This document shows, in pieces, positions 36,926-61,183 of a DNA stretch of 64,000 nt (its first letter is position 1; every line of letters begins with the position of its first letter). The stretch lies in the sequence record PP359570; one strand, written 5' to 3'. This stretch comes from Escherichia phage ALITA. A program made the translations under genes and the position numbers. The notes under the pieces were generated by a model. That model made no database searches, had not been told where the DNA came from, and saw nothing but the letters and a program-made list of their open reading frames with translations.

Positions 36926-36944
36926 AATACCCTCCATATAAATA

Positions 36945-36966
36945 AAGGAGGCTTTCGCCTCCTTTT
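36945..36966 (-). promoter_or_regulatory. Hairpin between AAA ATPase gene and downstream genes
   Basis: AAAGGAGGC-TTTC-GCCTCCTTT. Confidence 0.4.
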
Positions 36967-36971
36967 ATCAC

Positions 36972-38132
36972 TTAGTAAGAACGACCACCAAACACATACT
37001 CTGTGTAGTTTTTACGTTCTTTGTTTTTAATAACAACTTCAATGTTGTTGCCTTTATCATCGGTGAACACAAAGTGATAACCGTCACCACCCATTGTACG
37101 GATGTGTTTTTCATCATACGTCAGCAAGATACGGTCTACACCCCAGTAGTAGTCACCTTCTTCATCTTTGTCTTCTACTGTAACGACCCCTTCCATTTCA
37201 GGAAGATGCTCTTCTCCTAGCTTATGGTCTACAGCTACAACATAACGATTACCGCTAAACAAACCCTGTGCTGTCATACCGTCAATATCGGTATCTGCCG
37301 AAACATCTCCTGTACGATCTACACCGTTAACTTTCAGGAGTTTAACTTCTTTTGCAGCATAGCGGTGTTCAGTAATACTGATACCCATTAATGCAAGTGC
37401 ATCAGAGAATTTGTCATTAGGGTAACGGTTAAGTTCTTCTACTAGTGACTGAACAATATCAAAGTTCAAGTCCACGGAAAGATTATAAAGCGTTTCAAAA
37501 TCTGGTAAAAAGGCTTTGTTCTCCAGATTTTTAGCCAGATAGTCATCCATAGTAGCTTTAGGTAGTTTCTTATAGCTAAAACTGTAGAAAATACGGCTAG
37601 GACGATTACGCAAAAATTCTGATACATAACCATCATTTTTAGTCAATACAAACAGCTTGTCATAGCCACCTACACCATCCAGCAGAGTAAGCAAACCATC
37701 CTGTGCATCTTTTTCAGCATACAGTTTATCAAATTCATCGATCATAATCATCACAGGTTGTGTGATTTTAGACATAAAATTGATAAAGCCTTCGCCATTA
37801 AAAGCACTACCGATAGAAATAGTAGGAATACCCATTTCACGAAGAGCAGAAGACAGCATTTTAGCTTGCAAAGTTTTACCACTACCCTTCGTACCCTCAA
37901 GGAGAACACCTGTGTTTTTACCTTTGCGGCTAAGGAACGTCTTGATAATACGTTCTGATTTATCATCAGTATCACCGTATGTTACTGAAGGGACTTCCAT
38001 ATCGTTTTTAGGATACAGGAAGAACTCACCACTTTGAGTAACACCTACACCAAAAGTTCCTGCTGGAATTTCTTCAATATCTGTACCAGATTTCTGACGC
38101 AGGAAGATTTGATTGCCGAATACTGTAAACAT
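36972..38132 (-). CDS. P-loop AAA-type ATPase (paralog of 53127-54254)
   Basis: 386 aa; Walker A LLEGTKGSGKT, Walker B MIMIDEFDK. Confidence 0.75.
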   Translation of the reverse strand: MFTVFGNQIFLRQKSGTDIEEIPAGTFGVGVTQSGEFFLYPKNDMEVPSVTYGDTDDKSERIIKTFLSRKGKNTGVLLEGTKGSGKTLQAKMLSSALREMGIPTISIGSAFNGEGFINFMSKITQPVMIMIDEFDKLYAEKDAQDGLLTLLDGVGGYDKLFVLTKNDGYVSEFLRNRPSRIFYSFSYKKLPKATMDDYLAKNLENKAFLPDFETLYNLSVDLNFDIVQSLVEELNRYPNDKFSDALALMGISITEHRYAAKEVKLLKVNGVDRTGDVSADTDIDGMTAQGLFSGNRYVVAVDHKLGEEHLPEMEGVVTVEDKDEEGDYYWGVDRILLTYDEKHIRTMGGDGYHFVFTDDKGNNIEVVIKNKERKNYTEYVFGGRSY

Positions 38133-38152
38133 AGTTTTCTCCTCTATTTAAT

Positions 38153-38623
38153 TTAGTCAGATTCCCAAATGTTGTCTTTCTTAACCCACATTCGTTGATT
38201 ATCTGAACCTCTATAACGTTTCGTTGTTGGTTGATTCATATCATACTTACCATCTATCACTATGTCAACCAGTTTTTTAATTTTCTCTGGAATTTCTTCA
38301 AAAAGATATCCTGTATATAAGACAATATCTTTTTTGTTTCCAAAACAATCTCTTACCTTCTCAAGAACATACTCTACAGTGTCAATGTTCTCTTTGTCAA
38401 GAGGTTCACCACCTAAAACTGTTAATCCTTTAATGAAAGGTCGAGATAAATCTTCCAAGATAAGATCTAATGTTTCAGTAGTGAACTCTTGTCCGTAGTT
38501 ATACGACCAGGCTTTCTGGTTAAAGCAGCCACGGCAACCGTGGCTACAACCGCTCACCCACAAAGAGCATCTTACACCATCACCGTTGAGCATGTCAACA
38601 GGTTCATATCCGGCGTAATTCAA
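38153..38623 (-). CDS. nrdG: Anaerobic ribonucleotide reductase activating protein (radical SAM)
   Basis: 156 aa; CSHGCRGCFN CxxxCxxC cluster; immediately downstream of NrdD. Confidence 0.85.
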   Translation of the reverse strand: MNYAGYEPVDMLNGDGVRCSLWVSGCSHGCRGCFNQKAWSYNYGQEFTTETLDLILEDLSRPFIKGLTVLGGEPLDKENIDTVEYVLEKVRDCFGNKKDIVLYTGYLFEEIPEKIKKLVDIVIDGKYDMNQPTTKRYRGSDNQRMWVKKDNIWESD

Positions 38624-50776: not shown

Positions 50777-50807
50777 TTGTTTTTCTCCTTTCATTTGGTA
50801 TGCGCTA

Positions 50808-50835
50808 ATCTTAACAAAATAAAAATGTATGTCAA
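50808..50835 (-). promoter_or_regulatory. Sigma70-like promoter for minus-strand block
   Basis: TTGACA-16 nt-TAAGAT on minus strand. Confidence 0.45.
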
Positions 50836-50894
50836 TACTTGATTTGAAATTAGTTTCTGGTACTCTGTGTGTATCGTAACAAAAGAGGTTAGAT

Positions 50895-51185
50895 ATGAAC
50901 ATCACACTAGCAACTAAGAATATTACAGAAACTTTTGATGGTTTTGGCATTATTATTGCTGTTCATGGGCATAACGAAAAATGGTTAGCCTCTTTTGAAG
51001 AGGACAAAGAACGCAATGTACGTTTGAATGCACCAATCAAAGTTTTACACCAGGTAGGTGAGAATAAGAAACAATGGAGATCATACAAAGAGTGGAACAT
51101 TACGAACGAGTTAATACACAAACTTGACAAAGTGATAAACATGTTCGACAATGCACCAAGCAGTGCAAAACGTGTTTTACTATAA
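50895..51185 (+). CDS. Hypothetical early protein
   Basis: 96 aa, SD AAGAGG. Confidence 0.5.
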   Translation: MNITLATKNITETFDGFGIIIAVHGHNEKWLASFEEDKERNVRLNAPIKVLHQVGENKKQWRSYKEWNITNELIHKLDKVINMFDNAPSSAKRVLL

Positions 51186-51196
51186 AGGAGAGTGAT

Positions 51197-51550
51197 ATGA
51201 AAATTGTACACGATGAAATTCAATTTGAAGACAGTGATCTTCTTGATCTGGATGTGACACTAAGTAAACTGATCTACAACGCACTTTCTGCATATCGTGC
51301 AAAAGTGATAGCCACAAACAATGTTAAAATTCCTAGTGGGTTACTTCGTCGGATGTACCCACACGCTAAAGGTGACTATCTACCTTATATGGAAGAACGA
51401 GCAGCAGAACACTGGTTAGAAATTCTTGAAAAAATGGAGTCCTCTTTTAAAGATTCAACTCCACCGGAAGAAGTTAATGAAAAACAACGGCAAGAGCGTT
51501 TAGAAGGTCGTATTTTGTTTGCTAAGTATTTCCATAATTTGTGGAGCTAA
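51197..51550 (+). CDS. Hypothetical protein
   Basis: 117 aa, SD AAGGAG. Confidence 0.5.
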   Translation: MKIVHDEIQFEDSDLLDLDVTLSKLIYNALSAYRAKVIATNNVKIPSGLLRRMYPHAKGDYLPYMEERAAEHWLEILEKMESSFKDSTPPEEVNEKQRQERLEGRILFAKYFHNLWS

Positions 51551-51626
51551 ACATATCTGGTAAAATCACTTATATGTTCTTAGTATACTTGTGTAAAGAA
51601 GTTATCGGTCTAATTAAGGGGAAGAT

Positions 51627-51878
51627 ATGATTCAGTTTCAAAAAGGTCAAAAGATGACAGTTCACAATGCAGAGGAAATGGAATTTGCACTTAAACTTCT
51701 CGAAAATGCTGGGTTTGTGTGGATCAACGGTGGAGAGAAGCCTACAGCTTGGCTTCCACATGAGAAAATAGCCAACCACACCTTTCCTGATAGTATCAAT
51801 TGGCATTCTGATGGTAAGATTTGCCGTGGAAGTTACCCAACAGGTGTTGAGTGGACTATTAAATTAGGAGGGCTTTAA
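51627..51878 (+). CDS. Hypothetical protein
   Basis: 83 aa, SD AAGGGG. Confidence 0.5.
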   Translation: MIQFQKGQKMTVHNAEEMEFALKLLENAGFVWINGGEKPTAWLPHEKIANHTFPDSINWHSDGKICRGSYPTGVEWTIKLGGL

Positions 51879-51879
51879 T

Positions 51880-52218
51880 ATGTTTAGTAAAGAAATGAGA
51901 GAAGTAATTGCCACTTTGGTAGTTGATCATGGTGTTGAAGTTGAGCGTCACGTTTGGAACGATGAACCTCCTTTCTTCGATTTGGCATCACGAGCTAAAA
52001 GTCATATGCACCTGCTGGAAGACGGTAATGAGTTTGTTCTCCGTATGCGTTATGATCGAGAGTTTCGAATTCCGCTTGACACTGAACCAGATGGTGTAGT
52101 AATGTGGTTGGCAGAACATTTCGCATACGATGCACTACATGGAAGAAGTTTTGGTAATGAGCGTTGGGATGCCATTTGTCGTAAGCATAATATTGAACCA
52201 GAGTACGGGAGTATGTAA
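51880..52218 (+). CDS. Hypothetical protein
   Basis: 112 aa, SD AGGAGG. Confidence 0.5.
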   Translation: MFSKEMREVIATLVVDHGVEVERHVWNDEPPFFDLASRAKSHMHLLEDGNEFVLRMRYDREFRIPLDTEPDGVVMWLAEHFAYDALHGRSFGNERWDAICRKHNIEPEYGSM

Positions 52219-52469
52219 TGTTAAGTATCAAACCTAAAATGATAACGGAAGATGAAGCAGACTTTATTTTCAAATGTGGACGTGTATGGAGAGAATTCAC
52301 AAAAGGAAATGAAGTGGTTGTTGTTGTCGAACACAAGATATCTATCCAGGATCTGTTTGGACAATATGTTGATGTTATTAAATTAGGTATTGACAAGGGT
52401 TTAGTTGAGGTGTTAACATTAGATCAAGTTGAAGCAGAGCACCTCGATAAAGTAGTGGTTGAATTTTAA
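52218..52469 (+). CDS. Hypothetical protein
   Basis: 83 aa, TAATG overlap. Confidence 0.5.
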   Translation: MLSIKPKMITEDEADFIFKCGRVWREFTKGNEVVVVVEHKISIQDLFGQYVDVIKLGIDKGLVEVLTLDQVEAEHLDKVVVEF

Positions 52470-52489
52470 AATACAGACGGGAGAAAGGT

Positions 52490-52663
52490 ATGAGTTTCTT
52501 TGTTACAGTATTTATGGCTATCTGGATTGTAGTCTCACTCGTTCTTTTCCTGGTGGGTTGTCTGGAAGAGATTAAGAAAGCGGTTATTTGCGGTTTCTTT
52601 GGCTTTATTATCTCTCCTGCCTGGATGTGGTTCTTCATTATGATTGGTTTCCTTAAAAGGTAA
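52490..52663 (+). CDS. Small membrane protein
   Basis: 57 aa (below ORF-track cutoff), SD GGGAGAAAGG, two hydrophobic helices. Confidence 0.35.
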   Translation: MSFFVTVFMAIWIVVSLVLFLVGCLEEIKKAVICGFFGFIISPAWMWFFIMIGFLKR

Positions 52664-52677
52664 GTGAGGAATAAAGA

Positions 52678-53115
52678 ATGAGTAAAACAAACGCAATTGC
52701 AGATAAAGCAACGGATGTACTTCTGAACATGGTTAACGTCACTATTCAAACAATGAGTGATGTTGTAGAGTTTGGAAAACAACAAATTCCAGAAGTAATC
52801 CATCAATTATTAGTGTGGAAAGCAGTATCCGCAGGTTTATGGCAACTTTTTAGTATTTGCTTTATGTTTATTACTTTTATTGCTGTGCGGAACCTCGTAA
52901 AAGCAATTAAAGATAAAGAATGCCTGTGGTCACGAGATCGCTATGGTGAAGTATCTGCTTTACCTATTGTTGGTCTTGTTGTCTGTGCTTTCTTTTTCTT
53001 TTTAGGATTTGTTATTTTCTTTTCGAATTTTGATTGGCTAAAAATCATTATTGCACCAAAAGTGTATCTGATTGAATTTGCTGCTGATTTAATTCGTTCA
53101 TCTCAACAAAAATAA
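52678..53115 (+). CDS. Membrane protein
   Basis: 145 aa, SD GAGGA, hydrophobic helices. Confidence 0.5.
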   Translation: MSKTNAIADKATDVLLNMVNVTIQTMSDVVEFGKQQIPEVIHQLLVWKAVSAGLWQLFSICFMFITFIAVRNLVKAIKDKECLWSRDRYGEVSALPIVGLVVCAFFFFLGFVIFFSNFDWLKIIIAPKVYLIEFAADLIRSSQQK

Positions 53116-53126
53116 AAGGGGTTAAA

Positions 53127-54254
53127 ATGAAATACACGATTTATGGTGATATTGTAAGTGTAAATAAAGATATGGGCGTGGAATCTAACTATCTTCCACC
53201 TGGATTCTATACTGTTAGTCGTGATCCCCTTGGCAATTATTTTTTAAGCCGTGGTAATCTAACAGGTGTACCGGATGTTTTGTATGGTGAAACAGAAAAA
53301 CGAGCAAATCACGTTATCCGTACATTCCATCGCCGGAGTGCACAAGGTAAAAACACAGGCTTGCTTCTGACAGGAACTAAGGGCAGTGGTAAAACTATGT
53401 TAGCCAAACTCATTAGTCGTGACCTTGTAGAAGAAGGTATTCCAACTATTATGGTTACTCAAGCCTACAGCGATGCTAATTTCATTGAACTTATTAGCAA
53501 GATCACCGACAAAGCAGTGATTATTTTTGACGAGTTTGATAAAGTATATGAGAAGAAACAAGATCAAGAAGCACTTCTCACTTTGTTAGATGGTACTGGG
53601 AGTGGTAATAAACTGTTTATTCTAACTAAAAACAGTGGTTTTATCTCTGAATTCTTTTTAAATCGTCCTAGTCGTGTGTTTTATAATTTTAATTATGATA
53701 AAATCTCACTAGAAACTATGATTGACTATTTAGATAAAAACTTGGATAACAAAGCACACTTTGATAATTTCCAAAGGCTTTGGGATGTAAGTTTAGAGTT
53801 GTCCTTTGATGTGATCCAAGGTATAGTAGAAGAACTTAATTTCTACCCTGATTTATCCTTTAAAGAATGCATCTCTATGATGGGCGTTTCTTTGGGTGGT
53901 GGTAATAAATGGGATATCAGCAGCGTTGTTATTAATGGAAAACTTCAGAAAGTTAGCTGGGTATCTAGTTGGCATAACTTCACACCTGCAATCTTCTTAG
54001 GTGGCTCGTGCACACTAGACGTGTACTTGTCATCTCCAAGTGATGCAGACTCTAAAGAAGCCCTTGCTAATAGCTCTTACGTGGTTTTTGATGATGAAGG
54101 CGATGCTCGAATTCCATTGAATGCGACAAAAATGAAAGCAGATCTTATTACAGGCGGTAAAATCGTTGTGTTTAGTGATGATCCAGAAGATTCTTTCCGT
54201 ATTGTTCTGGAACCAACTATCACCAATGGTGCAACTTTGGCAAGCGTGTTTTAA
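53127..54254 (+). CDS. P-loop AAA-type ATPase (paralog of 36972-38132)
   Basis: 375 aa; Walker A LLTGTKGSGKT, Walker B IIFDEFDK; co-linear similarity to the minus-strand paralog. Confidence 0.75.
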   Translation: MKYTIYGDIVSVNKDMGVESNYLPPGFYTVSRDPLGNYFLSRGNLTGVPDVLYGETEKRANHVIRTFHRRSAQGKNTGLLLTGTKGSGKTMLAKLISRDLVEEGIPTIMVTQAYSDANFIELISKITDKAVIIFDEFDKVYEKKQDQEALLTLLDGTGSGNKLFILTKNSGFISEFFLNRPSRVFYNFNYDKISLETMIDYLDKNLDNKAHFDNFQRLWDVSLELSFDVIQGIVEELNFYPDLSFKECISMMGVSLGGGNKWDISSVVINGKLQKVSWVSSWHNFTPAIFLGGSCTLDVYLSSPSDADSKEALANSSYVVFDDEGDARIPLNATKMKADLITGGKIVVFSDDPEDSFRIVLEPTITNGATLASVF

Positions 54255-54268
54255 GTAAGCCAGCAAAT

Positions 54269-54295
54269 AAAAACCCGCTTCGGCGGGTTTTCTTG
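54269..54295 (+). terminator. Intrinsic terminator
   Basis: AAAAACCCGC-TTCG-GCGGGTTTTCTTG. Confidence 0.75.
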
Positions 54296-54328
54296 TATTG
54301 ATACCAGATTTAATAAGAGGAGTAATAG

Positions 54329-55735
54329 ATGCCAGCACCAAAATCATGGGAACAATATAAAGAAGAATTAACACCCCTTGCTAAAAATCACAACATTCAG
54401 ATTCTGGGTTATATTGGTGAATGGAAAGGGAGCAAGACTAAACTTAAGCTATCTTGCTCTGATCATGGGGAGTGGGAAAGTACCATAATCAATAGCTTTA
54501 AAACTAAAGGCGGTAAATGTTGCCCCGATTGCAATGGTCGTAGAAAAGTAACAGAAGAAAAGGAATGTATTTCCCTTGTTGATGTTGCTAAAGAAAGAGG
54601 GTTTACTTTTATAGGTCTTGCCGAAGAGTGGCGAGGTGTGCTAACAAAAATCCGCATAGTTTGCCCTAAACATGGAGAGTGGAACACCACGACCATTAGT
54701 GGTTTTAGGAAGGGACGTGGTTGTCCGGCATGTGCAAGTAATAAGCCGTTAACATGGGAAACAGAATTACCGATCTTGGAAGAGATAGCACAGAAGAAGG
54801 GGTATCAGGTGTTAGGGTACGTGGGAGAATGGAAAGGGATTGATACAAAACTTGATTTGTTGTGTCACTGTGGTAACAGATGGGATACTACAAGTATTAA
54901 CAGTTTTAAACATGATCATGGTTGTCCTTTATGTGGGTATGAGAATACAAGGAAGGCACAAACAATACCCGACGATCAACATATTGCAGATTTCTTTTCT
55001 ACAGGGAAATTTAAGGAAGGCACTATCTTTACCAATACAGGGAAACGTAGTTGTAGTAAAAACAAGGACATTATCTGGATGATCGAATGTCCTGTTTGCT
55101 CTCATGATGAGTATGTGCAAGCAGGTGTATGTGATGGTAAGTTTTATATGACACGTAGCGATCTTAAGGCTGGACACTTGCCCTGCCGCTGTGCAACTAA
55201 CTCTCATTATACAGAAAATCAGATTACCTACAGGGTAAAAAAGGAAGTAGAAGGGAGAGGGTATGTCTGGGTAGGTTGGATCGGTAAACCGTCTATAAGA
55301 CTGGGTAATTTTAAATATCTTTGTCTTGTTCATGGGGAACAAATTGGTAGTGCTTATCGCTTACTATATCAGGATAATGGTTGTCCACAATGTGCAGGTC
55401 ATAGTCAGCAGCAATTGTATGTTAATGTTGTTAAAGATAATGGTATTATAGTTGCTCTTAAGTTTGGTATATCTAAAGATAGTGCTAGGAGATTAAACAT
55501 TCAAAATAGGCGTAATATGTTTTTTATGGAGCGTATTTGTTTATATGATTTTAGTACAGTGAAGCAGTGTAAGGCTGCTGAAAGAGCTATAAAGAAAAAA
55601 TTAAAAACTGGTATCTTAACAGCAAGAGAGTTGAAAGATGGTTATACAGAAACAGTAAGTGTTTCTGATTTGGAAAATCTTCAAAAAATTATTACACAAT
55701 ATGGTGGCAAATTAGTATACAGTAAGGAGGTGTAA
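54329..55735 (+). CDS. Zinc-ribbon repeat protein with C-terminal T5orf172/GIY-YIG-like domain
   Basis: 468 aa; four or more repeats of C..HGEW...F...GCP.C; C-terminal LYVNVVKDNGIIVALKFGIS...RRL block. Confidence 0.55.
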   Translation: MPAPKSWEQYKEELTPLAKNHNIQILGYIGEWKGSKTKLKLSCSDHGEWESTIINSFKTKGGKCCPDCNGRRKVTEEKECISLVDVAKERGFTFIGLAEEWRGVLTKIRIVCPKHGEWNTTTISGFRKGRGCPACASNKPLTWETELPILEEIAQKKGYQVLGYVGEWKGIDTKLDLLCHCGNRWDTTSINSFKHDHGCPLCGYENTRKAQTIPDDQHIADFFSTGKFKEGTIFTNTGKRSCSKNKDIIWMIECPVCSHDEYVQAGVCDGKFYMTRSDLKAGHLPCRCATNSHYTENQITYRVKKEVEGRGYVWVGWIGKPSIRLGNFKYLCLVHGEQIGSAYRLLYQDNGCPQCAGHSQQQLYVNVVKDNGIIVALKFGISKDSARRLNIQNRRNMFFMERICLYDFSTVKQCKAAERAIKKKLKTGILTARELKDGYTETVSVSDLENLQKIITQYGGKLVYSKEV

Positions 55736-56287
55736 ATGCGGATTACTGATAAGTATGTGTTCTTCTTCTCGGCAAAAGATGAATTTAGCAACTGGTATCT
55801 ATCATCTTTTATTGAACCTTTAGCTCCCAAGTATAATAATTCTATTACAAGTTCTGTTGAATTTACTTGTGTGGAACAATATATGATGTGGAGAAAAGCA
55901 TGTTTGTTTTATGATTACAGTATTGCATCTTCTATTTTAACCGGAGATCTAAGATATACAGGAGAAAAAGAACAAGCATATTATAAACGACTAGGCAGAT
56001 TAGTTAAAGATTATGATGAAGATACCTGGGCTTCTTTACGGGAGAAGATTGTCAAGCGTGGTTTGTATCTTAAATACACACAAAATGAAGATCTCAAAAA
56101 TAAACTTATCGCTTACGCAGATAAGGAGTTCGTAGAGGCAAGCCCCTATGATTCTATTTATGGTATCAAAATGGGGATGTGGGATCGGGACGTGGAAAAT
56201 AAGGATTGTTGGAAAGGGCAAAATCTTTTAGGAAAATGGCATACAGACCTTGCTGTTTATCTAAAATCACAATCTGATATTTCCTGA
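55736..56287 (+). CDS. NADAR (YbiA/DUF1768)-family protein
   Basis: 183 aa; strong SD AAGGAGG; blocks FFFSAKDEFSNW, VEQYMMWRKACLF, LGRLV, FVEASPYDSIYGIKMG alignable to E. coli YbiA. Confidence 0.75.
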   Translation: MRITDKYVFFFSAKDEFSNWYLSSFIEPLAPKYNNSITSSVEFTCVEQYMMWRKACLFYDYSIASSILTGDLRYTGEKEQAYYKRLGRLVKDYDEDTWASLREKIVKRGLYLKYTQNEDLKNKLIAYADKEFVEASPYDSIYGIKMGMWDRDVENKDCWKGQNLLGKWHTDLAVYLKSQSDIS

Positions 56288-56506
56288 TATTTTGAAAATT
56301 TTTATTTTTATAAAAAGGGGTGTGGGTTTCATGTACGGAAATCCACCCTCTGAATAATATATCCAGAGTAAGTAGTATTCTGTACTCTGTTAATAAAGTA
56401 TTTAATTTGTTTGTTGGATTATGGTGGCTGATCTTTAAAAGGCATACTATCTCTTAACTACTACTTATAACAAAACAGTAAAATCCTTTTTATAAAAGTA
56501 CAAAAT

Positions 56507-56703
56507 TATTTAAAGTTTTTACAGATTTTCGGGTACAAATTTTGAAAATGAAAAGTTCAAGTTTGGTCAAAATTATTTAAAGTTTTTGTACGTATTTCTG
56601 TCCAGATTTTGAAAATGAAAACTTCAATTTTTTAAAAATTCCCCAGTTTATTTAAAGTTTTTTTGCCTTTTTCCGTAGAAAAATCAAAAATGAAAAGTTC
56701 AAT
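56507..56703. repeat. Three tandem direct repeats (~55-60 bp) in noncoding region
   Basis: Each unit starts TTATTTAAAGTTTTT and ends GAAAATGAAAAGTTCAA with a variable centre. Confidence 0.8.
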
Positions 56704-56724
56704 TTCGTGTTTTTATAGGTGTGT

Positions 56725-56841
56725 TAATGAGAATCATTTTCGTTTGTAAATGAGAATCATTATCATTTAACTATGTAAGTGATAATCATTCTCAGTAAGA
56801 GAATGAGAATCATTAGCAAATGAGAATTTTTCTCATTTACA
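56725..56841. promoter_or_regulatory. Cluster of five palindromic sites with Fur-box-like core (candidate repressor sites or origin iterons)
   Basis: AATGAGAATCATT variants; AATGAGAATCATTATCATT and GTGATAATCATTCTCAG; last copy is perfect inverted repeat AAATGAGAA-TTT-TTCTCATTT. Confidence 0.6.
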
Positions 56842-57098
56842 GAATAACGCGCAGGGGCGGTGTTTGTCTCGCGCTCCCGTGTCCCCTCGCCATACAATAA
56901 GAATAGCATAACCAATAACAAAAGCAAGCGATTATTTTTATCTTTACATTTCTTTACAAATTTATTTTAGACGAGCTACCGGCGATCAACCTTCCAACCA
57001 GTGCCCCCTGGTATGTTAGCCCCGCCTTTACGCCGTGGGGTGGCGTTTCCTCTTCTGTATGTAAAACAGTATAAGCCCGATCCCTGGGCTTGTCAAGA

Positions 57099-57365
57099 TT
57101 ATTTTTTGTTTTCTTGCCAGGATAGGACACCTAACCAAAAATACATGTCGCCCCGCGCCCCTGGTGGGATCTTGCTTTCCCCGCCGCCACTGCAAGCCCA
57201 TAAATAACCATCAGCGAACGGATCAAAGTGATCTATCTCTTCCACCTTATGATCGCCCAGGTTGAGAACGGTTTCAACCTTTAAGCCCGTTGCGCTTGCT
57301 ACCTGGTGCACCGTGCCGCCTTGCCAGCCCAGTGAGTGCATGAGATGTAAAGAAGTATTTGTCAT
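57099..57365 (-). CDS. Hypothetical protein, divergent from early array, GC-rich codon usage
   Basis: 88-aa ORF; hairpin AGCCCAGGGATCGGGCT downstream. Confidence 0.4.
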   Translation of the reverse strand: MTNTSLHLMHSLGWQGGTVHQVASATGLKVETVLNLGDHKVEEIDHFDPFADGYLWACSGGGESKIPPGARGDMYFWLGVLSWQENKK

Positions 57366-57736
57366 GGTATCGCCCTTTCTTTGTTGTGCGCCCTGGTTGG
57401 CGCGGTAGAAAGATGATAGCCGTTTCCTTCATATATAGCAAGCAAAAAAGAAATGAAAAAAAGATTAAAAAATGGTTGACGTTCCTCACCTGGTAGCGTA
57501 GTATTCATCTTGTCGAGGGGGGCAAGACACAACGACAATAAACAATAGGCGGGTGCAATGCAAGACGGGCAAAGGTGAGGATCTCCACAATCCACCGTCA
57601 CAATAACATTACTTATAAAAGGTTGATAACGATGATCAAGAAAGAAAATAGCTTGACGGTTGGAACGATTAACGCTATCATTCTTGCCGTTCCATTTTGG
57701 ATTGTAGTTGCGGTTATTATTTTCTAAAAAAATATT

Positions 57737-57764
57737 CTTGACAACGTTTTTTAATCTGATAAGA
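57737..57764 (+). promoter_or_regulatory. Sigma70-like promoter
   Basis: TTGACA-16-TAAGAT, followed by leader hairpin 57775-57794. Confidence 0.6.
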
Positions 57765-57817
57765 TGTATCACATAGGGCGGCAATAGTGCCGCTCATAAC
57801 AGAAGAGAGAAATAATC

Positions 57818-58090
57818 ATGGCATCATATAGCGCATCAATGATTGTAAAGGGTATCACTGGTAAACCTATGCGCGGTGGCGGATCTTTCGCTAACATCAA
57901 TATTGATGGACGTTTATCCCTGGACGCAGCGATCACAGTGGCACGGGAAACATTTAAAAAAGAATGTAATTTCAATAAACAAGATTATCTCGGTTTTGCT
58001 ATTGAAAAAACCGCGCGCTTTGTGGATTATAAAAGCCCGAAAATGATCGACACTACACTAAAAGCGCAAGATGTAGCGTTTTTGCTTTAA
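57818..58090 (+). CDS. Hypothetical early protein
   Basis: 90 aa; promoter-hairpin-SD unit upstream. Confidence 0.55.
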   Translation: MASYSASMIVKGITGKPMRGGGSFANINIDGRLSLDAAITVARETFKKECNFNKQDYLGFAIEKTARFVDYKSPKMIDTTLKAQDVAFLL

Positions 58091-58093
58091 GAC

Positions 58094-58122
58094 TTGACAC
58101 TGAAAAATAATTTGATAATATA
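58094..58122 (+). promoter_or_regulatory. Sigma70-like promoter
   Basis: TTGACA-17-TAATAT, leader hairpin GGCGGGGAAATGGTTTCCCGCC at 58133-58154. Confidence 0.6.
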
Positions 58123-58176
58123 TACCACATAAGGCGGGGAAATGGTTTCCCGCCAAATCAAAGAAAGGGTAATGCA

Positions 58177-58539
58177 ATGAGCAAGCAAATCAATACTATC
58201 ATGTTTAATCTGGTATCTTTCCGCGATGACGTGAAAAACCTTTCGCGTGATGCAGTGGATGCACGGATCGAAAGCTATCGCACACAGATCGCAACGTTAC
58301 CGCTGAAACGTGATCAACATGCCGCTAATATGATGCTTGATGCTATGATTAAAAAGATGATTCAATGTGATCTTACCCTGGCTTATGAATATGCTGGCGA
58401 TCTCTTTGTAACATATAGCAAGCCCGTTCCAGGTATGAGCACCACGGAAGAATTGCATGCCTTAAATCTGCGACAAGATGCATGGGATAACATGCGCCGT
58501 GTTATGGTATGGGTAGAAAGCGGTAAAATTTACGAATAA
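58177..58539 (+). CDS. Hypothetical early protein
   Basis: 120-aa ORF. Confidence 0.55.
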   Translation: MSKQINTIMFNLVSFRDDVKNLSRDAVDARIESYRTQIATLPLKRDQHAANMMLDAMIKKMIQCDLTLAYEYAGDLFVTYSKPVPGMSTTEELHALNLRQDAWDNMRRVMVWVESGKIYE

Positions 58540-58545
58540 AAACGG

Positions 58546-58573
58546 TTGACATTGCACTAAAACCTGATAAGCT
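58546..58573 (+). promoter_or_regulatory. Sigma70-like promoter
   Basis: TTGACA-16-TAAGCT, hairpin AGCGGGAATAGTTCCCGCT 58581-58599. Confidence 0.55.
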
Positions 58574-58617
58574 ATCTTAAAGCGGGAATAGTTCCCGCTT
58601 ACATAGGATAAAACTTT

Positions 58618-58764
58618 ATGAAACAATATGTAATGAGTATTCACACCAAAAACGGCGCTACTGTTACGACTCCGGCACGGTTTGCACTTGTAAACCGTTG
58701 CAAGAGACTAAAACGAGAGCTAAAAAACAACCGTGCAACGGGCTTTAAACGCTGGGGAGGATAA
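58618..58764 (+). CDS. Small basic protein
   Basis: 48 aa, below ORF-track cutoff. Confidence 0.35.
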   Translation: MKQYVMSIHTKNGATVTTPARFALVNRCKRLKRELKNNRATGFKRWGG

Positions 58765-58766
58765 TC

Positions 58767-59027
58767 TTGTTTTTTCTAAAAGTTTTTGATAATGTGATCG
58801 CTTTTGAACATGCTACAACGTTCGACCTGGCGAGATACGCTATCAGGTTTAAAGATAATGTTTATCCCCGTGCTGGCGGCGGTTACACTATTTTTAATCA
58901 TCGCAACGCGCAACTAACTGATATAACTAATCCAGATCCTGGAGTGTATCGGATAGGCTGGCTACCGTCAAAAGATGCGGCAAGCATGTTTAAGGTATGT
59001 AAACTACTAACAGAAGAGGCGAACTAA
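58767..59027 (+). CDS. Hypothetical protein (TTG start)
   Basis: 86 aa; SD GGGGAGG 9 nt before TTG; coupled to upstream small ORF. Confidence 0.4.
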   Translation: MFFLKVFDNVIAFEHATTFDLARYAIRFKDNVYPRAGGGYTIFNHRNAQLTDITNPDPGVYRIGWLPSKDAASMFKVCKLLTEEAN

Positions 59028-59028
59028 C

Positions 59029-59583
59029 ATGGGGCGTGAATATGTGATCCAGTCCTGGGTAAAGCATGATGCTAATGATCCGCGCATAATACCAGATGAC
59101 ATGATCGATCACATGGTAGGGTATAGCGGGGAGCAGATAGGAAATCGAGCGGCAAAGAGCAACGGCAACACCAGGACGCGATCCGTTCGCCCTGGATGGC
59201 TGGCAAATGGTAACGCTGACATTGCAAGCGCCGCAGATCCAAGCGATGACGCTAAAAATAATCCCTTATACAGTATTGATCCGGCTTTTAAGGTGTTGGA
59301 AGAGTATCCCGCTAAATTAGCCGCACTAGATAAAGCATACGAAGAAAAACGGGTGGCATGGACTGTATACAACACCGCTAAAATGGTGCTAGATGCAAAA
59401 TTGATTAAAGCCCAGGAGAAGATCAATAAACTTGTTACCATAGCGCAAGAGGAAGACCAGGACGACCAGGAGGAAGAGGAAGAAATCATGCCTAACCTGG
59501 AAGAGGAAGAGATCCAGCCATACACGCCGACAGAAGAGGAAAAAATACAAGCCTTAAAAAATTATAAAAATTGTATTGTGTAA
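59029..59583 (+). CDS. Hypothetical protein with acidic D/E-rich C-terminal tail
   Basis: 184 aa; EEDQDDQEEEEEIMPNLEEEE. Confidence 0.5.
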   Translation: MGREYVIQSWVKHDANDPRIIPDDMIDHMVGYSGEQIGNRAAKSNGNTRTRSVRPGWLANGNADIASAADPSDDAKNNPLYSIDPAFKVLEEYPAKLAALDKAYEEKRVAWTVYNTAKMVLDAKLIKAQEKINKLVTIAQEEDQDDQEEEEEIMPNLEEEEIQPYTPTEEEKIQALKNYKNCIV

Positions 59584-59586
59584 GGC

Positions 59587-59615
59587 TTGACATATGCAAA
59601 CAAGCCCCGTAATAT
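59587..59615 (+). promoter_or_regulatory. Sigma70-like promoter
   Basis: TTGACA-17-TAATAT. Confidence 0.5.
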
Positions 59616-59663
59616 GTACCACATAGAGCGGGGCAACCCCCTCAAAGGTGAAATAAAAATCAC

Positions 59664-59691
59664 TTGACAACTGAAATCAGTAAGCTATAAT
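59664..59691 (+). promoter_or_regulatory. Sigma70 consensus-like promoter
   Basis: TTGACA-16-TATAAT. Confidence 0.65.
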
Positions 59692-59728
59692 GCTTATATA
59701 AATTAAAGCGTTACTAAGGAATAAAATC

Positions 59729-60094
59729 ATGGCTAAAAATATCAATGTTTCTGCTTATGCTACCCTGGCTAACACTGCTAAAATTGAACTATCCAGCATT
59801 GAAGCGGTACATATTAGCGCCCGTCGCTGGTTTCAAAAGTCTTATGGTAATACTTATTTCTCTTTGATGGTTGACGTTGAGATCGGCGGTAAACTGATTG
59901 AAGTCGTTAACGTTCCGTTTCAATATGGTTATGGTGATCATTTTGATACCGTTGCCCTAGAAGAGTTTAGCAAGGTTATCAACCTGGAAGGTAAAGACTT
60001 TTCAAATTATGCTTACCTTTCCCGTTTTTGCCGTGATAATGGGATCGCTGTATACAGTCATGCAAGCGATGTTAAACGTAAAAAAGATTTATAA
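59729..60094 (+). CDS. Hypothetical early protein
   Basis: 121 aa, SD AAGGA. Confidence 0.55.
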   Translation: MAKNINVSAYATLANTAKIELSSIEAVHISARRWFQKSYGNTYFSLMVDVEIGGKLIEVVNVPFQYGYGDHFDTVALEEFSKVINLEGKDFSNYAYLSRFCRDNGIAVYSHASDVKRKKDL

Positions 60095-60100
60095 AAAGTA

Positions 60101-60128
60101 TTGACAGCACGAATAAAAAGCGTAAAAT
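60101..60128 (+). promoter_or_regulatory. Sigma70-like promoter
   Basis: TTGACA-16-TAAAAT, hairpin GGGGGAACGGTTTCCCC 60144-60160. Confidence 0.6.
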
Positions 60129-60183
60129 GTTTTATATCAGGACGGGGGAACGGTTTCCCCTCCTAACAAAGAGAGAAATAAAA

Positions 60184-60366
60184 ATGGCTAAATGCACTAT
60201 CTGTAAGAAAGAAATAGTATTAGTTCCAAGCGCCCGTGAACGTGCCGCTAAGTTTGGTGGCAAACCGTCAGACTATACAAAAATGTTCACTACCCATGCA
60301 GCTTGCCAGGTAGCGAAACGTTCACAAGAAAGCGTAGAATTAATGCGTAAACTTTCCAAAAAATAA
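60184..60366 (+). CDS. Small Cys-containing protein
   Basis: Start at ATG after SD (MAKCTICKK...), 60 aa. Confidence 0.5.
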   Translation: MAKCTICKKEIVLVPSARERAAKFGGKPSDYTKMFTTHAACQVAKRSQESVELMRKLSKK

Positions 60367-60368
60367 TA

Positions 60369-60396
60369 TTGACAAAGTATTTTATTACTATATAAT
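60369..60396 (+). promoter_or_regulatory. Sigma70 consensus-like promoter
   Basis: TTGACA-16-TATAAT, hairpin GCGGGAATAGTTCCCGC 60411-60427. Confidence 0.65.
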
Positions 60397-60451
60397 GGTT
60401 TACATCGAGAGCGGGAATAGTTCCCGCCTCACTGAAAAAGAGATTAACATC

Positions 60452-60691
60452 ATGGCTAAATCTAAAATGTACAACGGTCACAAAAACAAAACTCATTGGA
60501 ATGTAAGCCTTTGGATCAACAACGATGAAGGTTTTTATAATCTTGCGCGTGAATTTATCGCAGCTAACACCAATAAGAATGACGCAGCGCGGGATATGAT
60601 GTTATTTCTTGAAAGTATGGATCAAGATAAAACGCCAGACGGTTACAAGTTCAGTAAAACTGCAATCCGTGCCGCTATGGTTGGAATGTAA
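60452..60691 (+). CDS. Hypothetical early protein
   Basis: 79-aa ORF. Confidence 0.55.
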   Translation: MAKSKMYNGHKNKTHWNVSLWINNDEGFYNLAREFIAANTNKNDAARDMMLFLESMDQDKTPDGYKFSKTAIRAAMVGM

Positions 60692-60786
60692 AGGAGACAT
60701 AAAAATGAAACATCGTTCGACCTATCTGACAAAACGTTTTAGCTTAGATCATAAATTAGGCTATTACGGAAGAAATAGAAAATAAT

Positions 60787-60814
60787 TTGACAACGTTTAA
60801 AATTAGTGTAAGAT
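60787..60814 (+). promoter_or_regulatory. Sigma70-like promoter
   Basis: TTGACA-16-TAAGAT, hairpin GGGCGGGAAATGGTTTCCCGCC 60826-60846. Confidence 0.6.
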
Positions 60815-60868
60815 GTATCACATAGGGCGGGAAATGGTTTCCCGCCAAATCAAAGAAAGGTTATCATT

Positions 60869-61096
60869 ATGGCTATCGTTATTGTTCGCGTATCCGGTAC
60901 GGTTGGGATCTCCCAGGTAGTAGCAGTTATCACCGAGAAGAAAGGAGATGATCTTCACTCCTCCTTGAATAGCTGGGCGGTCGCTAACTTTGGGCAATGG
61001 TCGAGCGTTGAGTACATCGAATCCTACCAGGTGCCAACGATTAGCCTAACCGATCTAAATGTTGATCGCTTGTTGTGCCTGGATCAATTAAACTAA
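60869..61096 (+). CDS. Hypothetical early protein
   Basis: 75-aa ORF. Confidence 0.5.
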   Translation: MAIVIVRVSGTVGISQVVAVITEKKGDDLHSSLNSWAVANFGQWSSVEYIESYQVPTISLTDLNVDRLLCLDQLN

Positions 61097-61104
61097 AAAT
61101 AATA

Positions 61105-61132
61105 TTGACAAGATAACTAAAATCAGTAAAAT
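61105..61132 (+). promoter_or_regulatory. Sigma70-like promoter
   Basis: TTGACA-16-TAAAAT, hairpin GGGCGGCAATAGTGCCGCTC 61143-61162. Confidence 0.6.
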
Positions 61133-61183
61133 GTAATGCATAGGGCGGCAATAGTGCCGCTCCTAGTGAGAGAGATTATCAAG

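Follow-up and report, generated by a model that had tools for sequence, protein, structure and literature searches.

The window, by which the whole analysed stretch of 64,000 nucleotides from Escherichia phage ALITA (record PP359570) is meant, carries on its plus strand a gene for an AAA+ ATPase that is here called PAR1. The source phage is a phi92-like myovirus (Justusliebigvirus, Stephanstirmvirinae), and the 5 kb surrounding PAR1 are 94-96% identical to many Justusliebigvirus Escherichia phages (alia, PaulScherrer, vB_Eco_J-01). Around the gene, the following features are found:

52390 to 52419, plus strand: candidate sigma70 promoter, TTGACA, 18 nt, TG-n-TAACAT (extended -10), inside the ORF 52218-52469
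52490 to 52663, plus strand: gene of a 57-aa protein with two hydrophobic segments (phrog_22950)
52678 to 53115, plus strand: gene of a 145-aa predicted membrane protein (phrog_3054), ending 11 nt before the PAR1 start
53127 to 54254, plus strand: PAR1, AAA+ ATPase gene, 375 aa plus stop
54270 to 54291, plus strand: intrinsic-terminator-like hairpin of 9 bp with a UUCG loop and a U-rich 3' side, AAAACCCGC-TTCG-GCGGGTTTT, then CTTGTATT

PAR1 begins with an ATG that has AAGGGG as a good ribosome-binding site 6-11 nt 5' of it. In phage alia, a gene of equal length and position is gp101, which is annotated 'ATPase' and followed by gp102, an 'endonuclease', and deposited phage proteins with the label "ATPase" are 100% identical to PAR1. 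The Pfam family PF00004 (AAA) is matched by PAR1 with 38.9 bits (cutoff 21.2, E 1.5e-9) and by a second protein of the window, PAR2, with 29.4 bits at the same cutoff of 21.2. The first-pass annotation, which had been made from the sequence alone, regarded the two as AAA ATPase paralogs with PAR1 as the plus-strand copy, and this is well founded: BLASTP aligns them with E 1e-81 and 47% identity over aa 3-256, and both are full-length members of phrog_2376 'ATPase' (PAR1 with E 6.6e-108, aa 1-367 corresponding to profile positions 1-357 of 363, and PAR2 with E 3.6e-104). PAR1 is a real gene and plainly an AAA protein; dozens of phi92-like genomes already carry an annotation of it, and gene, AAA class and family are known from public records and PHROGs. 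A phage AAA ATPase or a pair of such paralogs is no surprise to the specialist, and PAR1 is not unusual. In the literature on the PAR1 family and on phi92/phAPEC8-like phages, no functional or transcript data were found.

The family is large and comprises no fewer than 3,338 clusters when grouped at 50% identity (E ≤ 1e-30), nearly all of them 350-400 aa long and matched over their full length. Phi92 gp190, phAPEC8 gp014 and Salmonella phage 7-11 gp125 belong to phrog_2376, which also takes in the 'AAA superfamily ATPase' of Herelleviridae. Members occur in Herelleviridae, jumbo phages, Salmonella phage 7-11, phages of Aeromonas, Acinetobacter and Proteus, and crAss-like phages, and bacterial assemblies carry members too, some of which adjoin Xre, PcfJ, HipA or PIN genes. 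The BFVD models of phrog_2376 members superpose along their whole length, and all BFVD matches to the PAR1 family are unnamed or generic 'AAA' proteins. When 61 bacterial or MAG loci were clustered by neighbour similarity and considered together with six phages and two metagenomic relatives, no conserved gene neighbour emerged that would point to a substrate. The only neighbours that do recur are host leuCD-like and LMW-PTP genes at about 10 Lachnospiraceae loci, besides sporadic Xre, PcfJ, HipA and PIN genes. In the Lachnospiraceae loci L031, L034, L037, L039, L043, L058, L063 and L069, a lone member lies between duplicated leuC/leuD-like genes and a gene for a low-molecular-weight phosphotyrosine phosphatase; these members, placed among housekeeping genes, are thus chromosomal and not part of an obvious prophage. 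At the locus L064, the member adjoins HipA-like, PIN, AAA_14 and Xre genes.

An AlphaFold2 model of PAR1 was built on 54 family members and reached a pLDDT of 87.9. Together with the alignment to the D2 module of p97, it gives the following parts of the protein, all on the plus strand:

53127 to 53276, aa about 1-50: N-terminal beta domain of five strands in the model; 27% identity to PAR2
53292 to 53702, aa 56-192: AAA alpha/beta core, from the model and the alignment to p97 D2; 56% identity to PAR2
53373 to 53396, G83-T90: Walker A motif GTKGSGKT, in agreement with GxxGxGK[ST]
53457 to 53474, T111-D116: pore-loop-1 position with Y114, from the alignment to p97 D2
53661 to 53675: arginines R180 and R183 of the SRH, in NRPSR, which aligns to RPGR of p97
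53709 to 53882, aa 195-252: helical lid in the model; 47% identity to PAR2
53886 to 54227, aa 254-367: C-terminal beta-rich domain in the model; 24% identity to PAR2
54228 to 54251: C-terminal tail, of low confidence in the model, ending with ...ASVF

The strands of the N-terminal domain, which in the model spans aa 1-45, are aa 3-6, 9-12, 18-20, 27-32 and 38-43. In the core, the Walker B motif is VIIFDE (aa 131-136) with D135 and E136, in agreement with hhhhDE, and sensor-1 is N169. The family (54-128 members) has as invariant residues G83, G86, G88, K89, D135, E136, N169, R180 and R183, of which N169, R180 and R183 occur in 128/128 members, and PAR1 and PAR2 both retain every catalytic motif. 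The lid has the invariant residues F227, D228 and N238 and the further conserved residues E235, E236 and Y240, and in the family alignment there is no conserved Arg in the lid that could serve as a sensor-2 arginine, an absence that is typical of the classical AAA clade. Of the 128 members, 110 have an aromatic residue at the pore-loop position 114, and at position 116 there are 86 with Gly and 33 with Asp. The triplet at this site is Y-S-D in PAR1 and F-N-G in PAR2, the canonical form being aromatic-hydrophobic-Gly and the aligned site of p97 D2 being W-F-G, and the region of pore loop 2 is in the family about 12 residues shorter than in p97. Because of the shortened pore-loop-2 region, threading is less certain here than in p97. 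The C-terminal domain is confidently folded in the model (pLDDT 89), has no invariant residue across the family, and matched no solved fold. Of 125 family members, 82 end with F, Y or W, and most others with a hydrophobic residue.

With regard to the class of the ATPase, the family profile searched against PDB sequences gave top matches that are all classical-AAA proteins (E 7e-13 to 1e-7), namely AFG2, NVL/Rix7, Bcs1 and the D2 module of p97/Cdc48/VAT. The closest solved relatives of PAR1 are p97/Cdc48 D2, AFG2, NVL/Rix7, Bcs1 and the bacterial Trip13. The matches in NCBIfam are sub-threshold hits to the P-loop only. PAR1 is a soluble ATPase that falls in the classical AAA clade, and it belongs to the large, phage-associated and uncharacterised family phrog_2376. 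Other assignments were considered and dismissed. The STAND NTPases (nSTAND3, PF20720) would require winged-helix and sensor or effector domains next to the NTPase core, a combination that was not found; a clamp loader of the RFC/gamma/gp44 type would be expected to have a helical collar, whereas the C-terminal domain of PAR1 is beta-rich, and the SRC arginine motif of clamp loaders is absent, PAR1 having NRPSR; and a membership in Bcs1 fails on the BCS1_N domain and the membrane anchor, which PAR1 both lacks.

The paralog lies about 15 kb away on the opposite strand and has signals of its own:

36944 to 36965, minus strand: terminator-like hairpin AAAGGAGGC-GAAA-GCCTCCTTT, directly after the stop codon of PAR2
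36972 to 38132, minus strand: PAR2, paralog of PAR1, 386 aa, with the same architecture and motifs and a strongly diverged C-terminal domain
38240 to 38268, minus strand: sigma70-like site, TTGACA, 17 nt, TATGAT (11/12), inside the end of nrdG, 108 nt upstream of PAR2

When the C-terminal domains of the PAR1 and PAR2 clades are aligned by hhalign, the direct comparison gives 8.5%, whereas 92% and 96% are obtained via an intermediate clade. As each C-terminal domain aligns with that intermediate clade, the entire architecture must have been duplicated and the C-terminal domain strongly diverged afterwards. In a neighbour-joining tree of 251 conserved columns, which carries no support values, the PAR1 and PAR2 clades are sisters and a jumbo-phage protein stands outside, and the pair is regarded as the product of an old duplication inside the phi92-like phage lineage. 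As the motor has been kept (56% identity) and the end domains have diverged (24-27%), PAR1 and PAR2 may be expected to act on different targets or partners. Both paralogs are present in Justusliebigvirus and in Klebsiella phage phi1_175008, and Phapecoctavirus (phAPEC8 and relatives) has the PAR1 type alone (64.5% identity), in the same order of small ORFs, ATPase and endonuclease as in the window phage.

PAR2 is flanked on one side by TelA, TerC, Macro, PRTase_3 and HAD genes and on the opposite side by NrdG/NrdD, and the Ter-like genes that the first-pass annotation had placed in this region are thus indeed there. Its idea that PAR2 is tied to a Ter-like operon is weakened, however, since Phapecoctavirus keeps the cluster without PAR2: phAPEC8 retains the NrdDG and the HAD-PRTase-TerC genes, no AAA gene separates the two groups, and the Ter-like genes therefore do not need PAR2. 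PAR2 is also separated from them by its own promoter-like site and terminator. Both these signals are kept in a divergent metagenomic relative (L009, 5862-7180), in which the gene order NrdD-NrdG-AAA-...-PRTase-...-TerC is as in the window phage. The unit at 36944-38268 on the minus strand is self-contained and is missing exactly at the corresponding junction in phAPEC8.

PAR1 has comparable surroundings. The cluster in which it resides begins at the divergent intergenic region 50778-50894, and PAR1 lies downstream of this promoter region, the sites in which reach only 9-10/12. From 50895 to 57737, the plus strand has a single exact TTGACA-N16-18-TANNAT, the site at 52390, and both hexamers of this site are unchanged in phAPEC8 despite differences in neighbouring codons. 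As judged from the sequence, this site, the two small membrane-protein genes, PAR1 and the terminator could form one unit, with 52490-54254 being driven by the site. The phrog_3054 gene is not conserved at the corresponding position in phAPEC8, and the upstream membrane proteins were rejected as conserved PAR1 partners, as phAPEC8 carries other small genes there. The terminator that had been proposed after PAR1 is confirmed: the hairpin, in RNA form AAAACCCGC-UUCG-GCGGGUUUU, has a local dG of about -16 kcal/mol (z = -2.6) and is kept both in alia and in phAPEC8, which is more distant. The stretch 54255-54328, comprising hairpin, spacer and RBS, is nearly invariant relative to phAPEC8, while the flanking proteins are 64.5% and 54% identical, which suggests a strong constraint or a recent exchange together with the endonuclease gene. 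No well-placed promoter was recognised by eye at 54292-54328, between the terminator and the endonuclease gene, and Rfam and tRNA scans of the PAR1 region found nothing.

The genes that follow had been described as T5orf172-like and NADAR, of which the order and the NADAR assignment are correct (55736-56287, E 3e-36), whereas T5orf172 stays sub-threshold in 54329-55735 (17.5 bits vs 20), a protein dominated by four CapR repeats (E 7e-47). The phAPEC8 version of this protein is shorter, with 394 aa and fewer CapR repeats. The supposed tie of PAR1 to these genes is undermined by the terminator, which separates them from PAR1, and adjacency therefore is no proof of co-transcription. The terminator is also no special mark of PAR1, as PAR2 too is followed by a tetraloop terminator (36965-36944) and preceded by an 11/12 sigma70-like site (38268-38240). 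Each paralog thus lies in a short unit between a sigma70-like site and a hairpin terminator, and both are insulated from the neighbours to which they had been assigned. Strict TTGACA-N16-18-TANNAT sites occur 19 times in the window with 1.3 expected, and of the 11 on the plus strand, 10 are found at or beyond 57738 and one, that at 52390, upstream of PAR1, a distribution that does not support the label 'early' for the PAR1 operon.

The region downstream of the NADAR gene has a number of features of its own. In the non-coding stretch 56290-57730, three tandem AT-rich repeats of ~70 nt with 23-25% GC are found at 56487-56705, which carry a 'repeat_region' annotation in phage alia and could be an origin-like or regulatory region. 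Just downstream of them, at 56723-56817, the E. coli Fur-box consensus GATAATGATAATCATTATC is matched at 16/19 positions three times in a cluster, with 0.03 expected, and these matches are part of a four-copy repeat with a TGAGAATCATT core; such an array could be a set of candidate Fur-binding sites or another operator array. A GC-rich block at 56850-57420 (50-54% GC vs ~37% around it) contains an 88-aa ORF on the minus strand (57099-57365) and terminator-like hairpins on both strands, and looks like foreign DNA or a moron. In 57738-61151, finally, a cassette occurs five times before small ORFs, consisting of an A/T-rich stretch, TTGACA, 16-17 nt, TAAGAT or TATAAT, CACATAGGGCGG, a GC hairpin (GGCGGGAAATGGTTTCCCGCC) and a ribosome-binding site, and this is probably the true early-promoter region. 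The strict sigma70-type sites that lie at or beyond 57738 on the plus strand belong to this cassette.

The catalytic motifs, the classical-AAA relatives and the unmatched C-terminal domain together lead to a reading of PAR1 as a hexameric protein-remodelling motor with end domains that choose the target. On balance, it is somewhat likely that PAR1 forms rings and uses ATP to remodel or unfold proteins as a motor of the classical AAA type, the oligomeric state and the protein nature of the substrate being inferred. PAR1 would assemble into a ring, probably a hexamer, in which ATP bound at Walker A and B would be hydrolysed with the help of R180 and R183 from the neighbouring subunit. With this energy a protein substrate could be pulled on or remodelled by way of the central channel, in which the conserved aromatic Y114 would be positioned. 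The choice of the substrate or of a partner would fall to the two beta domains at the ends, the small N-terminal one and the C-terminal one, which evolves fast and is not catalytic, and PAR1 and PAR2 may have been specialised for distinct targets through the divergence of these domains.

A more specific role has been considered in which PAR1 would act early as a remodeller in host takeover or anti-defence and dismantle a host protein complex, such as an immune complex, while PAR2 would serve in another pathway. Bacterial Trip13 resets the HORMA-CdnC immune complex, and NADAR proteins can reverse the ADP-ribosylation of DNA by DarT. PAR1 lies among small ORFs downstream of the divergent promoter region, a position that is kept in phAPEC8, the homolog of Salmonella phage 7-11 likewise lies among small ORFs, directly behind an Srd-like sigma70 decoy, some bacterial homologs adjoin Xre, HipA and PIN genes, the NADAR gene is only 1.5 kb downstream, and the C-terminal domain evolves fast, as a conflict interface would. 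However, the Trip13 score is indistinguishable from that of Bcs1 or NSF, the PADLOC defence library gave noise-level matches only, the terminator sets PAR1 apart from the NADAR and endonuclease genes, and the strong repeated sigma70 promoters begin only at 57738, and we regard such a role as unlikely, although compatible with the proposed mechanism. A function in DNA replication, as a DnaC/IstB-like helicase loader or a clamp-loader subunit, is improbable. It would agree with weak partial matches to the clamp loader phrog_168 (1.2e-8, 36 bits, aa 63-199), to DnaC-like PHROGs (~1e-6) and to Hda (3.9e-7, 29.8 bits), with the source names 'DnaC' (P0119) and 'putative DNA replication protein' (P0116) of relatives, and with the nucleotide-metabolism genes that adjoin PAR2, but the matches are confined to the P-loop core and remain far below the cutoffs (Hda 29.8 vs 194.8, IstB in NCBIfam 19.9 vs 200). 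The family has the NRPxR double arginine of the classical AAA proteins and no conserved sensor-2 arginine, the model has beta2 (107-110), a 6-residue loop, alpha2 (117-125) and beta3 (130-134) with no helical insertion, PAR1 lacks a collar or DNA-binding domain, and in other phages there is no recurring association with genes for helicase, primase or polymerase.

As the two motors are 56% identical, with complete active sites and equal architecture in both proteins and with similar promoter-like and terminator signals, PAR1 and PAR2 might also co-assemble into a hetero-oligomeric ring in a single pathway, like Pex1/Pex6 or Yta10/Yta12. However, 15 kb lie between the two genes, which are on opposite strands, Phapecoctavirus has the PAR1 type alone, and many other phages are single-copy, in which homo-oligomers must work, which makes co-assembly quite improbable. 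Finally, the GenBank names 'putative ATPase or Zn metalloprotease' and 'FtsH-like protease' would make PAR1 an FtsH-like ATP-dependent zinc metalloprotease, an identity that deserves hardly any credence. Neither Peptidase_M41 nor any other protease domain is found in Pfam searches, there is no HExxH and no hydrophobic segment (the maximum Kyte-Doolittle mean over 19 residues is 1.0 vs a threshold of ~1.6), an IGF-like loop for docking of the ClpP or HslV type is lacking, and the C-terminal domain has neither an invariant residue nor a protease-like fold. Without transmembrane segment, HExxH or ClpP-docking loop, the labels 'Zn metalloprotease' and 'FtsH-like protease' are unfounded, and these two database labels are herewith corrected.

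PAR1 alone matters little. Some value as a target comes from its family, which ranks among the larger ones in phages and combines a clear enzymatic core with a C-terminal domain whose fold is unsolved and that has no relative of known structure. The family is found in many large virulent phages that are used or proposed for therapy (Stephanstirmvirinae, Herelleviridae, jumbo phages), and with PAR1 and PAR2 there is a natural experiment in which the same motor is combined with different end domains in an easily handled E. coli phage. A wider and speculative proposal, to which we assign little probability, is that the phrog_2376-type proteins are widespread phage remodelling motors with a novel C-terminal fold that recognises host proteins. 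The phi92-like pair would then have been re-targeted by divergence of the C-terminal domain, for example against host defence or stress complexes, and the bacterial homologs beside Xre, HipA and PIN genes would represent the other side of the conflict.

In comparison with known systems, PAR1 is an ordinary member of phrog_2376, with the identical three-part architecture and no difference. The best sequence-profile matches of the family are AFG2, NVL/Rix7 and the D2 module of Cdc48/p97/VAT (E about 1e-12), and the p97 D2 group and the PAR1 family align at Walker A and B, the LLTxxDG helix, the sensor-1 Asn, the RPxR motif and an aromatic residue at the pore-loop-1 position. In contrast to Cdc48/p97, PAR1 has a single AAA module and not two, has no Cdc48-type N domain, and possesses a unique C-terminal beta domain. 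Bcs1 is a heptameric mitochondrial AAA protein that moves the folded Rieske protein; with it PAR1 shares 19% identity, but PAR1 lacks the BCS1_N domain (Pfam) and the membrane anchor. The bacterial Trip13/Pch2 of CBASS operons is 13% identical to PAR1, with the AAA module alone covered, and does not have the C-terminal domain that PAR1 has. FtsH belongs to the same clade as far as the AAA module is concerned, but its transmembrane helices, its Peptidase_M41 domain and its HExxH motif have no counterpart in PAR1.
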